Sequence record: OK335775.1
Source of the DNA: Escherichia phage PSD2002
DNA length: 64,000 nucleotides
Direction: 5' to 3' (one strand)
The position numbers were made by a program, and so were the translations under genes. Under the pieces are notes generated by a model. That model ran no database searches. It was not told the origin of the DNA and worked only from the letters and a program-made list of their open reading frames with translations. Below, in pieces: positions 13,209 through 56,525 of this stretch. Numbering within the stretch: position 1 is the first letter of the stretch; every line of letters starts with the position of its first letter.

Positions 13209-14331
13209 TTTTAACCTTCGGCGGTTCTTCAATCTTAATAGGCTTACCATTAGTAAACATATAAAGGTTTGTAATTGATGTATTGTTACTCACTTCATGA
13301 ATAACTTCGTCTACATAAAAATCGTACTGGAATTGGTTTTTAGGGTCATAGAAATTAATCTTATCGCCTGGAGTTAGTTCAAAGTTACCATATACCTTAC
13401 AATGAGCGTATCCATCGTATTGGGCCATAGTAACTAATCTATCGGCTTCTTCAAAACCGTTTCGGTAGGTATAATCAGAATATCCACCGGAGCGAGAAAC
13501 CAATATACTGTTTTGCCCGTCACCAAAAGTAATTCGTGTGGCGTTTTTGTCTAAGAAAGAGTGGGCGTATACAGTAGCGTTTTCATATGGTTTTCTGGAA
13601 TGTTGGTTGGCTTTAGTTAACCATTCAAAATCAAATGCGATAGGTGTATCCATATCTTGAACGTATTGACCTATTAATCGCGGCTCACCCACTACAAAAT
13701 TAATAGGCTCTTGGTTAACCATAAATTCGTAGTCCATGATAGAAATACCATCTATATCTTCCCAGACAAATACAAATTTATCAGATTCAACGGCCATACC
13801 TACTTCTCGTACAAATTCCATATAACGGTCCATTGAATCACACCAAGGAACATTAGGAACGTAAACGTTTATCCCGTTCAAAGGAGGAGCAAGAAGCGGA
13901 CGGTCTTGATAAATAACACCAATCATTTCAGTTAATGTTTCTTGAACACTCGGGAAGAACATACGACTAAATTTAAGATTCTCTAAAAAGTGGATTGGGG
14001 CGAGTTGTATTGTTATGATATTGTCGCCCTTCGAATCCACTCCTACAGCAAAGTGTTTACTTCCATAAATTCTTGATTGGGTACGTTCAGAGTTAGCATT
14101 CTTAACAGAAATTTGAATAATCTGCTCACCGTCCATTTTAGTATGAAGGTTCTTTGCATCATAAAACTGAAGCAACCCTTCATTACTACCGTAAAGCCCA
14201 TCTCGCATTGTTAGAGTAGTAAATGTCGCGCCTAGTTCAACAAAACGATGCTCTAACCAGGCGTCATAATCTTCGTAAAGGCGTATACTAATATTAGGAA
14301 AGCCTTCACGTTGCATAGTTTTTGAACTCAT
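13162..14331 (-). CDS. 27: baseplate hub subunit gp27
   Basis: 389 aa (T4 gp27 391 aa); N-terminal region ([16 protein letters not shown]...) resembles T4 gp27. Confidence 0.85.
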
Positions 14332-15080
14332 TTCTTAAGGTCCTTTTCAACCAAAGACAAAGCAATACCGCGTTCGATTGGAATCATCTGCATAATGCTT
14401 TCTAATGAATAATTGTTCTTTACCAGTAAATGGTTTATTTGGTAAAATAAAAATATCTCATCCGGGTTGACTATAAGCTTAAACACCTCTAAAATATCGG
14501 TATACGTAATTGTTCTACGATTACAGCATCCATATTTTAGTTCAAAATTAATAGGGCTAGTTTGTTTGACTATATCCTCTAAAGTGGATAAGTCTATAGC
14601 ATCTATTACGGCTAATTGGTCTTCTTCAGAAAGGTCAGTCCAATTATATTTCCCGTTTTCATCTTCCACGGTTTGGAGGGTGTTCAGAATCAATTCGGAT
14701 TTGTCTTGATATTCTATTTCCGGAAATTTGAATGTTAGCTTCAAGCCGGCCACTTCAATTGTGGGATTATCTAACTTGGTCTGTTTCAAATTGAATAAAA
14801 CTTGTCTATCCTTTTCACACTTACTACAAGTGTATCGGATAGGAATTTTGGTCTTGCCGAGTGATGACGTATAAAGTTCAATGAACATATATGGGCGCCA
14901 TGACATAGGATATTCACCGAAGTATTCTTCCAGTAACTCATCTAAAATTTGTTTTTGCTCTTCAGGTGATTTATTATTCATGTCATTTCGAATCAAAATA
15001 AAATCACGATAATCAGCTACTGTAAAAGGTTTAAATCGGTGGACTCCATCAGGCATTTCACAACGTACTATATTAGCCAT
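14328..15080 (-). CDS. 51: baseplate hub assembly catalyst gp51
   Basis: Track ORF 14328..15131 trimmed to ATG at 15080 ([12 protein letters not shown]); about 250 aa (T4 gp51 249 aa); late promoter immediately upstream. Confidence 0.7.
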
Positions 15081-15100
15081 AGGGTGTCCTCTTATTGATG

Positions 15101-15112
15101 TATTTATAAATA
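15101..15112. promoter_or_regulatory. bidirectional late promoter: palindrome TATTTATAAATA gives TATAAATA on both strands
   Basis: TATAAATA at 15105-15112 on + (gp26 ATG 15131) and on the reverse strand at 15101-15108 (gp51 ATG 15080). Confidence 0.6.
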
Positions 15113-15130
15113 AGCTTAAAGGAGAAGACA

Positions 15131-15754
15131 ATGAATTATACTTTTGACGTAAAAATTAAAAACAAAACCATAAAATGCAGAGCATTTACCCTCAGAGAGT
15201 ATAAGGACTTGCTCCAAGCTAAATTAGAAGGCAGAATAGAGTCCTTTATCAATGAACTCATTTCGAATTGCACAGATGCTCGTGATTTAAACAAGCAAGA
15301 ATCTGAGCTCCTGGTGATAAACCTGTGGGCCCATTCATTAGCTGAAGTGAATATAGAACGTGAGTGGAGTTGTAGTTGTGGCCGCTCACAGGTTGTCCCT
15401 ATGACACTAACTCGAGCAACATTGGGTAAAGAGCCGGATGTTATTAAAGACTTTGGCAACTTTAAAATTGTTTTCAGATATCCTAAACTCTTTGAAGATA
15501 AAAATAGAGCTATGATGGTCGCAGGGTGTATCGATTATATTTTAACTTCTGCAGGCGAAAAGCTTCTTCTTTCCGATTTAAGCGGTGCGGAACTTGATGA
15601 CCTTTATTCTGTGATAACAGAAAAAGATATAAAAGAAGTTTATGATGCACTAGTCGCCCCTAAGCCTATTTTGGCTATACCTATTTCTTGTGAATGTGGT
15701 GAACACACCGTCCACGTTATTGAGGGACTTAAAGAGTTCTTTAAGGTGATGTAA
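15131..15754 (+). CDS. 26: baseplate hub subunit gp26
   Basis: 207 aa (T4 gp26 208 aa); RBS AAAGGAGAA; late promoter; synteny with gp25. Confidence 0.75.
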   Translation: MNYTFDVKIKNKTIKCRAFTLREYKDLLQAKLEGRIESFINELISNCTDARDLNKQESELLVINLWAHSLAEVNIEREWSCSCGRSQVVPMTLTRATLGKEPDVIKDFGNFKIVFRYPKLFEDKNRAMMVAGCIDYILTSAGEKLLLSDLSGAELDDLYSVITEKDIKEVYDALVAPKPILAIPISCECGEHTVHVIEGLKEFFKVM

Positions 15755-16143
15755 TGAATATCAATAAAATGTATTCAGATTTAGACCCTGAAATGAGGAC
15801 GTCTTGGAATAGAGACGTCGCTAAAGCTACAGGTGCTCGCGCAGTAAAAAATAGTTTGTTAGGCATTATTACTACTCGCAAGGGTTCGCGCCCTTTTATG
15901 CCTGAATTCGGTTGTGACATCAGCAACCAATTGTTTGAGAATATTACTCCATTAATCACGGATACCATTAAGCGTAATATAGTTTCCGCAGTGCGGAACT
16001 TCGAACCCAGAATTTCTGCTCTAGCTGTAGGTGTGACACCTGTGTACGATGATAACTCGATTATCGTGACCGTTCAGTTTAGTATCGTTGATGACCCAGA
16101 TACATTAGAGCAAATTAGAATCCAGCTCTCACAGAGTGGTTAA
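15754..16143 (+). CDS. 25: baseplate wedge protein gp25
   Basis: 129 aa; sequence (GIITTRKGSRPFMPEFGCD...) closely resembles T4 gp25; TAATG overlap with gp26. Confidence 0.9.
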   Translation: MNINKMYSDLDPEMRTSWNRDVAKATGARAVKNSLLGIITTRKGSRPFMPEFGCDISNQLFENITPLITDTIKRNIVSAVRNFEPRISALAVGVTPVYDDNSIIVTVQFSIVDDPDTLEQIRIQLSQSG

Positions 16144-16992: not shown

Positions 16993-17220
16993 TTAGAAAT
17001 CTTCCTCTTCCTCGTCGTCCATCGACTCCAATTCAGCTCTCTTACCAGCCAATGCATCACGCACGCTAATATCATCCGAATCACGAAGTTCGGCTTCCTT
17101 ACTACGAGTTTTGTAATACTTTTCCAATTCCTTCAGACCATCCATAGTCTGACAAGAACCAATTTTAGCCATGAAGCTTTCAATAGATGCTTCTTGAATA
17201 ACTTCTTTAAAGGTTTTCAT
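16993..17220 (-). CDS. uvsW.1: UvsW.1-like small acidic protein
   Basis: 75 aa (T4 UvsW.1 76 aa); position downstream of uvsW. Confidence 0.55.
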   Translation of the reverse strand: MKTFKEVIQEASIESFMAKIGSCQTMDGLKELEKYYKTRSKEAELRDSDDISVRDALAGKRAELESMDDEEEEDF

Positions 17221-17912
17221 AAATCCACCTGTTTCATTAAATTTCTGATTTTGTGACGAGAAAGACCCGTGGCTTCAGAAGCTTGTTTCATCGAGCCATA
17301 TTCAACACCATTTATAGTAACCTTTTTAGCTGCCGGGTTTTTAGATGGGTCTTTATATCTTTCTTTAGCTTTATCTGAAATTTTCTTAGAAGCTTCAGGG
17401 GTATGATTTTTACCATACATGCCGTTGCCGGCACCGGAATTTCTTTCAGATATAGCTTGACATTGTTCTTGCGTGTATTTATAAGGATTCGCTTTTTTAG
17501 TTGCAGATATTTTATCGCCCCATAAAATAGGTCTACCTTTAAATAAATTGCTCATATATTCTTTATGAGCTTCAGTGTGGTGCTTACCGTAAAATGGATT
17601 TCCTTCTCCAGTCTGAAGAATTGCCAATTGCCTACGTTCCCACCCATATGATTTACTAAATTGTCTTTTATGAGTCCTGGAGCTCATACCCATAGAAATA
17701 ACAGCTTTTATGAGACCGTAGTTATTTGGATAAATTTTGGCCAGTAATTTATGAGCTATAAAATGTTCTTCTGGGGTAAGGCGTACTCTATTTTCTTGAG
17801 TATCAGGCCCACCAATACACGACGGGATAATATGATGAGATTCTGTATAACCCATAGGTTTAGAAGCCTTTCGGCTTCTAATTAAATTGTCATAAATTTT
17901 TTGATAATTCAA
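17217..17912 (-). CDS. free-standing HNH homing endonuclease with NUMOD3 and NUMOD1 motifs; TTG start
   Basis: HNH motif HHIIPSCIGG...ENRVRLTPEEHFIAH; NUMOD3-like NPFYGKHHTEAHKEYMS and NGMYGKNHTPEASKKIS; C-terminal HTH; first codon reads TTG, overlapping the uvsW stop. Confidence 0.85.
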   Translation of the reverse strand: MNYQKIYDNLIRSRKASKPMGYTESHHIIPSCIGGPDTQENRVRLTPEEHFIAHKLLAKIYPNNYGLIKAVISMGMSSRTHKRQFSKSYGWERRQLAILQTGEGNPFYGKHHTEAHKEYMSNLFKGRPILWGDKISATKKANPYKYTQEQCQAISERNSGAGNGMYGKNHTPEASKKISDKAKERYKDPSKNPAAKKVTINGVEYGSMKQASEATGLSRHKIRNLMKQVDL

Positions 17913-19405
17913 ATTTGGACCTCTTTCATGACATAATTAAATTTCTCGTCTGCGTACCGTTGAATACGTTCTAATCCATGTTTTAATGCATAATTTAGGT
18001 GAATGTATTTCTTTTTAGAATCTTTGGATTTAGGTTTCACCCCCATGTCATCGATGATGTCAAAAACTTGGGCTGTTGTTTTAGATTTGTGTTTACGTAA
18101 AACCCTTCCTATGGTTTGCAGTACCGTTACCTTGGATTTTACTGGATGGGCAAATACAACGTGGTGAAGGTTCTTAACGGAAATACCTGTAGAGAACACA
18201 CCATAACTTGCCACAACAATAATACCCTTACCATTTTCCGCCATTACCTTCAGAGCATTACGCGTTTCGGTATTAACTTCACCCGATACGTAATAAACTT
18301 CTTTATGTTGCTCTTTAACCATTTCAAAAAGAGTTTTACCGTGTTCGATGTTTTTAAACATCAGGAATACGTTCTCTTCTTTCTTAGCGAGTTTAACAGC
18401 TAAATTAGCAACCCATTTATTACGACGAGTAGCCTTAGTAATGACCTTGATTTCTGATTGGTAATCTTTACCTTTCATTTTAACCGTGAATTCGTCTGGG
18501 TATCGAAGGAAAATACTGTTGATTTTAAGGTCAGTAACCTGTCCTTCTTCCATTAATTGGGAGGTGGATACTGGCTTAAACACATCACCAAACAAGCCCA
18601 TATATTGCATTAAATTAGCTTTACCATCTTTTAAAGAACCCGACAAACCGAATTTAAACATACAGTTGGTTAGGCCTTCGATGATAGTAGAAATAGATTT
18701 ACCTGTAGCCAAATGGCATTCGTCGTTCATAAACATACCGAACTGAGCAAACCATTCTTTAGGTTGCTTGATAGCGGTTTGATAAGTTGAAACATAAATC
18801 ATTGCATCGGAATCACGAGCAGTACCTGAACGAATACCAAGCATTGCGGCTTTAGGGAACAGACGATAATCGATGAAGTCATTAATCATCTGGTCGACAA
18901 GTGCAGTAGTAGGAACTAATATAAGGATTTTACCTTCATAGTTCTCAACGTAATATCGACTCAGGAGCGCCTGGATTAATGATTTACCTGCGGATGTAGG
19001 TAAATTCAGAATTGCACGACGTTTTGTCAGGCCGTTGTATACGGCTTCATTCTGATACCAATGAGGCTCAATCTTGGTAGACCCTGAATAAATTTCTTGA
19101 GAAGCCACCCATGAGTCAAAATCTTCACGAGAAATATCTTCCTGTTCAAGAATACGTGGGTCAATCCACAGAGAGTATTCAAATTGTTCAGCGAACTTTT
19201 TAATTTGAGGAACCAATCCATATGGCAGTTTACGGTTATAATCCAGAAGGCGAATACGTCCGTCCCATTGACCATAACGAAATTTAGGGTTGAATTTATA
19301 TCCATCAGCTTCAAAGCTAAAATAGTCTCTGAGTTCGTAGAATGTAGATTCATCGCATTCAATACGGACATGACTAAAATTATCAAAATGTACTTGAATT
19401 TGCAT
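17909..19405 (-). CDS. uvsW: UvsW helicase
   Basis: 498 aa; Walker A (PTSAGKS), DECH box; N-terminus resembles T4 UvsW. Confidence 0.9.
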   Translation of the reverse strand: MQIQVHFDNFSHVRIECDESTFYELRDYFSFEADGYKFNPKFRYGQWDGRIRLLDYNRKLPYGLVPQIKKFAEQFEYSLWIDPRILEQEDISREDFDSWVASQEIYSGSTKIEPHWYQNEAVYNGLTKRRAILNLPTSAGKSLIQALLSRYYVENYEGKILILVPTTALVDQMINDFIDYRLFPKAAMLGIRSGTARDSDAMIYVSTYQTAIKQPKEWFAQFGMFMNDECHLATGKSISTIIEGLTNCMFKFGLSGSLKDGKANLMQYMGLFGDVFKPVSTSQLMEEGQVTDLKINSIFLRYPDEFTVKMKGKDYQSEIKVITKATRRNKWVANLAVKLAKKEENVFLMFKNIEHGKTLFEMVKEQHKEVYYVSGEVNTETRNALKVMAENGKGIIVVASYGVFSTGISVKNLHHVVFAHPVKSKVTVLQTIGRVLRKHKSKTTAQVFDIIDDMGVKPKSKDSKKKYIHLNYALKHGLERIQRYADEKFNYVMKEVQI

Positions 19406-19419
19406 AAGTAATTCTCAGT

Positions 19420-19441
19420 TATAAATATAGTTATATTTATA
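19420..19441. promoter_or_regulatory. divergent late promoters (TATAAATA on + for inh/hoc; TATAAATA on the reverse strand for uvsW)
   Basis: TATAAATA at 19420-19427 (+) and complement of TATTTATA at 19434-19441. Confidence 0.55.
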
Positions 19442-19460
19442 CACCAACAAGAGACTAATT

Positions 19461-55428: not shown

Positions 55429-56030
55429 TAGAGGGCTTTCTCCATTTCTCTAATTAAAGCGGAAACAAAGGACTCGATGTCATTAGGGTCTATAATCTTT
55501 ATTTCGCGCTTATATTCATTTTTACGAATGGCGTCCTCGTAAATATCTACTGCAGCCAAAGGACCTTCATATTGAGGATAACGTTTTTCTGTATCACCTT
55601 TATCGTACCAAGTATAAGGATTTTCCGGAGTATTTACTAGATTCCAGAATTTCTCACCCTTTTCATTGACATGATAAAGGACTTGGTTTCCGCCTGCAGT
55701 AGCATAACGTTGAATAGCTGCTTGATACGCAGATTCTTGGCCTGTAATCCAGCCGTAATAAGGGTCATATACGTTATTACACATCAATAAAACCCAATAT
55801 AATTGCACGTTACCATAAAGTTGATGGGCTAATTCTTCTGGACGAGGGGCCCCACTGATATAATATGTTTTAAGTGTATAATTTTTAGCCACTTTATCAA
55901 AATATTCTTTATAGTTTCTAAATATATCAGTCATCGGTACGCTCAGTACATCGGCATCAGTTAATGAGCCGGAATCTGGCTTGACTGTTTTTGATTCGTA
56001 ATTTATAGGATCGAAAAATGAGAAGAGCAT
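55428..56030 (-). CDS. 53: baseplate wedge gp53
   Basis: 200 aa (T4 gp53 196 aa); synteny; late promoter upstream. Confidence 0.7.
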   Translation of the reverse strand: MLFSFFDPINYESKTVKPDSGSLTDADVLSVPMTDIFRNYKEYFDKVAKNYTLKTYYISGAPRPEELAHQLYGNVQLYWVLLMCNNVYDPYYGWITGQESAYQAAIQRYATAGGNQVLYHVNEKGEKFWNLVNTPENPYTWYDKGDTEKRYPQYEGPLAAVDIYEDAIRKNEYKREIKIIDPNDIESFVSALIREMEKAL

Positions 56031-56075
56031 AGTGCCTCCGAGTATAAATAATATTAATATTTATAAGGAGGCACT
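56031..56075. promoter_or_regulatory. symmetric divergent late promoter region: TATAAATA on each strand flanked by 9-bp inverted repeat AGTGCCTCC/GGAGGCACT
   Basis: TATAAATA at 56043-56050 (+, gp4) and complement of 56058-56065 (gp53); the inverted repeat supplies GGAGG RBS to both genes. Confidence 0.6.
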
Positions 56076-56525
56076 ATGGCCTACTCAGGGAAATTTAAAC
56101 CTACAAACTTACAAAAATATAAAGGTGATTGGAAGAAAATCCAATATCGTTCCTCTTGGGAAGCATGGCTTATGCGTTGGCTTGACAACCATCCTAATGT
56201 CGTCCAGTGGAACTCGGAAGAGGTTGTGATTCCATATTTTAGTAACGCTGATGGAAAGAAACGTCGGTATTTTATGGACTTCTGGGTGAAGTTCGACAAT
56301 GGTCAACAATTCTTTTTCGAAGTCAAACCTTTTAAAGAGACCCATCCTCCAGCGGCGCCTGCTAAAATGACTACAGCTGCTAAAAAGAGATATATCAACG
56401 AACATTATACATGGAGTGTAAATAAAGATAAATGGAAAGCTGCTAAAGCTACAGCAGATAAAATGGGAATTAATTTCAGATTGATTACCGAAAACTCACT
56501 GAAAAAATTAGGATGGAAAGGATGA
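56076..56525 (+). CDS. 4: head completion protein gp4
   Basis: 149 aa; sequence (MAYSGK...[16 protein letters not shown]...GQ.FF.E.KP.KET.PP) resembles T4 gp4. Confidence 0.85.

Follow-up and report, generated by a model that had tools for sequence, protein, structure and literature searches.

The window (the whole 64-kb stretch of DNA that was analysed) belongs to a Dhakavirus, and over positions 14300-15800 its identity is 99.6% with Escherichia phage WG01 and about 94% with JS98. Two divergent genes that code for the hub assembly proteins gp26 and gp51 (PMC3004832) are located in this region and are separated by a spacer of 50 nt. The two genes are as follows.

14328-15080, minus strand: gp51, baseplate hub assembly catalyst, 250 aa (Pfam PF12322, 4.7e-56; phrog_150; phrog_634)
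15131-15754, plus strand: gp26, baseplate hub subunit / hub assembly chaperone, 207 aa (Pfam PF12322, 2.3e-51; phrog_150)

The window gp51 is 51% identical to T4 gp51 over 247 aa, and the window gp26 is 49.5% identical to T4 gp26. As in T4, the genes run 27-51 / 26-25-uvsY, with gp28 following gp27 on the gp51 side. These results agree with the gene identities given in the preliminary description. Like T4 gp51, the window gp51 begins at an ATG, at 15080 (MANIVRC...); the ORF listing runs on to a TTG at 15131. The genes gp51 and gp26 are head-to-head paralogues around the palindrome of the spacer: PF12322 and phrog_150 match both proteins over the full length, and the two proteins of the window are 21% identical over 201 aa (E = 1e-5). 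In the T4 annotation, gp26' is a product of internal in-frame initiation and spans the 95 codons at the end of gene 26. The analogous region of the window is about 15467-15754 on the plus strand.

The spacer contains TATTTATAAATA at 15101-15112. According to the preliminary description, this element is a perfect self-complementary 12-bp palindrome that carries a late box on both strands at an offset of 4 bp. Both statements are exact: the 12-mer equals its own reverse complement, and TATAAATA is located at 15105-15112 on the plus strand and at 15108-15101 on the minus strand, with 4 bp (15105-15108) in common. The features of the spacer are as follows.

15101-15112, both strands: 12-bp palindrome formed by two late boxes with 4 bp in common (sequence and relatives)
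15105-15112, plus strand: late box TATAAATA for the rightward unit gp26-gp25(-uvsY), at -13 to -6, very probably the equivalent of T4 P26 (box search with the published definition)
15101-15108, minus strand: late box TATAAATA for the leftward unit gp51-gp27-gp28..., at -13 to -6, very probably the equivalent of T4 P51 (box search)
15118, plus strand: predicted transcription start, A, 6 nt past the box, with a 13-nt leader (from the box position)
15095, minus strand: predicted transcription start, A on the minus strand, 6 nt past the box, with a 15-nt leader (from the box position)
15119-15124, plus strand: Shine-Dalgarno sequence AAGGAG of gp26, 6 nt before the ATG (sequence; aAGGAG/GAGG kept in relatives)
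15088-15091, minus strand: Shine-Dalgarno sequence GAGG of gp51 (CCTC on the plus strand), 7 nt before the ATG (sequence; CTCC/CCTC kept in relatives)

The T4 late promoter has the consensus box TATAAATA at -13 to -6, and A is permitted at -13 (PMC1524935, PMC2988020). In the window, both boxes agree with this published definition and lie directly upstream of late (assembly) genes, gp26 and gp51. The predicted start sites 15118 (+) and 15095 (-) are 23 bp apart. In each case the start is an A, the leader begins just ahead of the Shine-Dalgarno sequence, and the ATG follows 13-15 nt on. An A at box+6 is present at 14 of the 18 late boxes in the window. T4-type late promoters have an A/T-rich segment directly after the box. 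The 5-nt stretches between box and +1 (AGCTT and CATCA) contain 3/5 A/T each (60%) vs 76% over the 18 window boxes and a background of 60%, so that the pair falls short of the average box in this respect. The preliminary description placed the start codons 20-25 nt away on each side. They do flank the palindrome on both sides, but the distances are shorter: the gp26 ATG at 15131 is 18 nt past the palindrome, and the gp51 ATG at 15080 (-) is 20 nt past it.

The 60% A+T content of the window would favour a chance A/T-rich sequence or a folded element of DNA or RNA (a hairpin or a cruciform, for instance a terminator). A single copy of the 12-mer is present in the window vs 0.01 copies expected from dinucleotide-preserving shuffles, and its sequence is conserved across genera. 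The box TATAAATA occurs 18 times vs 6.96 expected, and none of the shuffles reached 18. As for folding, no stable hairpin was found in the spacer: the DNA minimum free energy of -2.7 kcal/mol (z = -0.13) does not surpass that of shuffled sequences. No terminator-like site and no sigma-70-type promoter were found in the 51/26 spacer, and both candidates were rejected. The chance, hairpin and cruciform readings are refuted by conservation and folding, and their probability is practically nil.

The genes gp51 and gp26 are each the first gene of the unit on their own strand, and neither has a same-strand gene upstream. Thus, each gene needs a promoter within the 50-nt spacer. This point bears on the explanation that only a single promoter works, and that the other box is a by-product of the palindrome while the gene concerned is served by a different promoter or by read-through. 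Besides the pair, no further late box was found in 15040-15170 with one mismatch allowed; as described above, the spacer holds no sigma-70-like site that could take its place. TATT upstream of the box is found only at these two boxes among the 18, so it is no general upstream feature, and the second box does not simply extend the first. Among the 18 boxes, the 4-mers on the upstream side bear no relation to one another, which fits the absence of a -35 or upstream consensus. On the other side, the Geiduschek review warns that activity in vivo is not proven for every listed T4 late promoter (PMC2988020), and in Krischvirus the junction sequence TATTTATAAAATACTAAATAA has a perfect box on the gp51 strand only. 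All the rearranged lineages described below, however, retain a late box on each strand, exact or near-consensus, and each predicted +1 is an A in 33 of the 37 distinct relatives. Taken with these features, a single working promoter is very unlikely.

We conclude that the palindrome very probably represents back-to-back late promoters of the gp55 type, with the predicted start sites given above, and that it is orthologous to the T4 P26/P51 pair. The T4 26/51 junction consists of the orthologous genes, the identical TATTTATAAATA and a spacer of 50 nt, and the order of Shine-Dalgarno sequences and start codons is the same. Only the spacer sequence other than the boxes differs, and the ATG distances are 20 and 18 nt here vs 17 and 21 nt in T4. 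Overlapping promoters for divergent transcription of the T4 base plate gene cluster, at genes 26/51, were reportedly described by Scarlato and co-workers in 1989 (Virology 171:475). The T4 GenBank records have no promoter features annotated at the 26/51 junction, and a literature search for genome-wide T4 start-site data gave nothing useful.

In the case of RB69, the late promoters Pl:118620(+) and Pl:118672(-) were predicted by Nolan et al. (2006) (PMC1524935, Additional file 5). Both fall in the RB69 26/51 spacer (118623-118669). Thus, a promoter is predicted for each strand of this spacer as in the window, and the Mosigvirus junction carries the same 12-mer; RB69 differs in that it belongs to another genus, its promoters are in-silico predictions, and the overlap is undiscussed in the paper (PMC1524935). 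The same supplement gives no coordinates for the 44RR 26/51 junction, and the variant box TTTAAATA is not listed there for 44RR.

The junction was also taken from annotated genomes of 14 genera, and from IMG/VR loci. The preliminary description had suggested comparison with the 51/26 junction of T4 and its relatives. This comparison bore out the late-promoter reading: the exact 12-mer, identical in T4, is located at the 26/51 junction in 11 of the 14 sampled genera and in 47 of the 56 IMG/VR loci, a gp25-anchored set that overlaps the isolate genomes. The genera with the 12-mer are Dhakavirus, Gaprivervirus, Winklervirus, Karamvirus, Mosigvirus, Jiaodavirus, Marfavirus, Muldoonvirus, Hadassahvirus, an unclassified Acinetobacter phage and Tequatrovirus. 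Within the genera set, the identity of gp26 to that of the window drops to 30%. Over 37 distinct sequence contexts, the flanks of the 12-mer hold 0.41-0.44 bits per position and the remaining spacer has diverged. The following lineages have other arrangements.

Aeromonas phages (44RR, AS-gz): TATTTAAATA, with TTTAAATA on both strands, one mismatch on each
Krischvirus: TATTTATAAAATACTAAATAA, minus strand (gp51) box intact, plus strand box imperfect; not palindromic
L030: TATAAATATTTATAAATG, boxes on both strands
L062, 1878-1891 (junction placed by motif search): TATAAATATTTATA, a face-to-face 14-bp palindrome with 2 bp in common
L063, 1904-1926 (junction placed by motif search): TATAAATA-N7-TATTTATA, face-to-face, separated boxes

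In Krischvirus (L010, about 1150-1175), a 1-nt insertion gives TATTTATAAAATA, and ACTAAATA is present downstream. The lineages that lack the 12-mer thus retain a late box on each strand, exact or near-consensus, in other geometries. These results indicate that the two promoters are conserved, and not the palindrome or the spacing as such. What the compared sequences share on either strand is a late box, be it exact or near-consensus. A pair of perfect boxes is no strict requirement, given the imperfect plus strand box of Krischvirus. In searches by tblastn, neither the window gp26 nor the 44RR gp26 reached Aeh1, KVP40, RB43 or the cyanophages, and the junction survey covers the 14 genera and the IMG/VR loci given above.

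The perfect two-fold symmetry is typical of operators for dimeric proteins. The palindrome might accordingly be mainly the site of a dimeric DNA-binding regulator of the hub genes, for example a DsbA-like binder of A/T sites, with the boxes being secondary. DsbA has been reported to bind with low affinity at A/T-rich sites overlapping two late promoters (PMC2988020). However, a 4-bp overlap between two TATAAATA boxes automatically yields a palindrome. The symmetry ends at the 12 bp, and the adjoining positions (-1 and +1 of the palindrome) are unconserved among the 37 distinct relatives. Moreover, the altered lineages retain the boxes and not the palindrome or the spacing: the Krischvirus junction is non-palindromic, and the L063 boxes lie apart.

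Aeh1 also bears on this point. Its late box is CTAAATA (PMC1524935). At the junction of gene 4 (-) and a gp48-like gene (+), Aeh1 contains a perfect 14-bp palindrome, TATTTAGCTAAATA (L074, 1005-1018; NC_005260, about 122804-122817), which is the Aeh1 variant late box on both strands. Nolan et al. predicted the opposed Aeh1 late promoters Pl:122785(+) and Pl:122835(-), and these coincide with TATTTAGCTAAATA (PMC1524935). Like the 51/26 element, TATTTAGCTAAATA consists of back-to-back overlapping late boxes that form a perfect palindrome; it differs in the variant box (G)CTAAATA, the 2-bp overlap and the gene pair. By inspection of Aeh1 by hand, no 26/51 junction and one gp26-like gene only were found. 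The Aeh1 palindrome follows the promoter consensus of its own phage, which argues against a separate palindrome-binding factor. Such a regulator as the main user of the site is therefore even less probable than a single working promoter.

For the pair of late promoters, the following mode of working is proposed. The genes for gp55, gp33 and gp45 lie outside the window, and of these gp55 was looked up, in WG01 (the phage with 99.6% identity over 14300-15800): the 185-aa '55 gene product' encoded there has a match at 1e-68 to phrog_234 (late sigma transcription factor). Transcription from T4-type late promoters depends on gp55 and gp33 and, through the loading of gp45, on DNA replication. RNA polymerase with gp55 would engage the site in either orientation. 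Rightward binding would lead to a start at about 15118 and transcription of gp26-gp25, and leftward binding to a start at about 15095 and transcription of gp51-gp27-gp28. In the gp55 open complex, the DNA is unwound from -12 to +2, and gp33 and gp45 are located on the upstream duplex (PMC7892883). The activated footprint reaches 13 bp further upstream (PMC2988020). Here, -12 to +2 corresponds to 15106-15119 for one promoter and to 15107-15094 for the other. Either open complex would thus melt part of the opposite box and cover the opposite start site. As the boxes have 15105-15108 in common and each complex would cover the other promoter, a single polymerase should be engaged at a time. The mutually exclusive occupancy put forward in the preliminary description is thus structurally well grounded, whereas the coordination of hub gene expression through the shared site, also put forward there, is speculation.

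A similar arrangement is known for the bidirectional sigma-70 promoters of bacteria (Warman et al. 2021; Nucleic Acids Res 2026, PMC12825309). They have a symmetric -10-type element, binding of polymerase either way and mutual exclusion. Divergent start sites 23 bp apart make up one of their three common classes (PMC12825309), and 23 bp is the distance predicted here. In the case of the 51/26 element, unlike the sigma-70 case, the sigma factor is gp55, the box is 8 bp long and there is no -35 element; in addition, a sliding clamp activates the promoter and its orientation sets the polarity, and both directions drive essential mRNAs. For the E. coli bidirectional promoters, exclusion alters the output only if one direction is strongly activated (PMC12825309).

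The orientation of the clamp sets the polarity of promoter activation (PMC2988020). The direction of firing at a given moment may thus depend on the orientation of the arriving gp45 clamp; this step is our own addition. Taken further, the site could be a clamp-polarity switch, at which one gp45 orientation would fire the gp26-gp25 unit and the other would fire the gp51-gp27-gp28 unit. The idea is prompted by the back-to-back geometry, which is kept letter-for-letter despite the workable alternatives in L062, L063 and the Aeromonas phages. Relatedly, genes 26 and 51 could be the products of an inverted duplication with the promoter as its axis; they are paralogous, and Aeh1 has a single gp26-like copy. 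An origin of this kind is conceivable, but it is improbable as stated, as is the switch. If the switch were true, the direction of the replication fork would set the ratio of two paralogous hub-assembly proteins.

Two other divergent junctions of late genes in the window have an exact box on each strand, a 45-55-nt spacer and an inverted repeat, as the 51/26 junction does. At the junction of uvsW (-) and an inh-like gene (+) (19420-19441; spacer 19406-19460), the sequence is TATAAATAta-GT-taTATTTATA, with perfect 10-nt inverted arms. Its late boxes are face-to-face, one per strand, each in the leader of the other, with starts predicted at 19433 (+) and 19428 (-). A late promoter of T4 uvsW is known (PMC3016281). 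At the junction of gp53 (-) and gp4 (+) (56020-56086; spacer 56031-56075), an extended inverted repeat, CATAGTGCCTCC...TATAAATA-N7-TATTTATA...GGAGGCACTATG, takes in both Shine-Dalgarno sequences and both start codons. Its outer arms are 20 nt long and 85% complementary, the late boxes are face-to-face (56043-56065), and the symmetry reaches far past the boxes. In both cases the boxes are 6-7 bp apart, each within the leader of the opposite gene, and the predicted starts cross, with an overlap of about 5 nt. By contrast, the 51/26 boxes are back-to-back with 4 bp in common, and the starts are 23 bp apart.

Near the first of these junctions, a 231-aa ORF (17217-17912, minus strand) with two NUMOD3 motifs (Pfam PF07460, 5.6e-12) is located between uvsW (17909-19405) and uvsW.1 (16993-17220), and the stop and start codons overlap. 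This ORF probably encodes a homing endonuclease, and it contains an exact TATAAATA at 17476-17483 on the minus strand.

The element at 15101-15112 is a correct re-identification of a known T4-type promoter pair in a new genome, and the value as a discovery is small. The modest gain is comparative. The 12-mer is invariant over many T4-like genera, alternative geometries are found in a few lineages, and the predicted 23-bp spacing of the starts is that of a common class of bacterial bidirectional promoters. The junction is a convenient natural system for studying polymerase competition or clamp-polarity control at a symmetric promoter. Dhakavirus thus retains the classical T4 solution, in which two divergent baseplate-hub operons are served from one 12-bp element.
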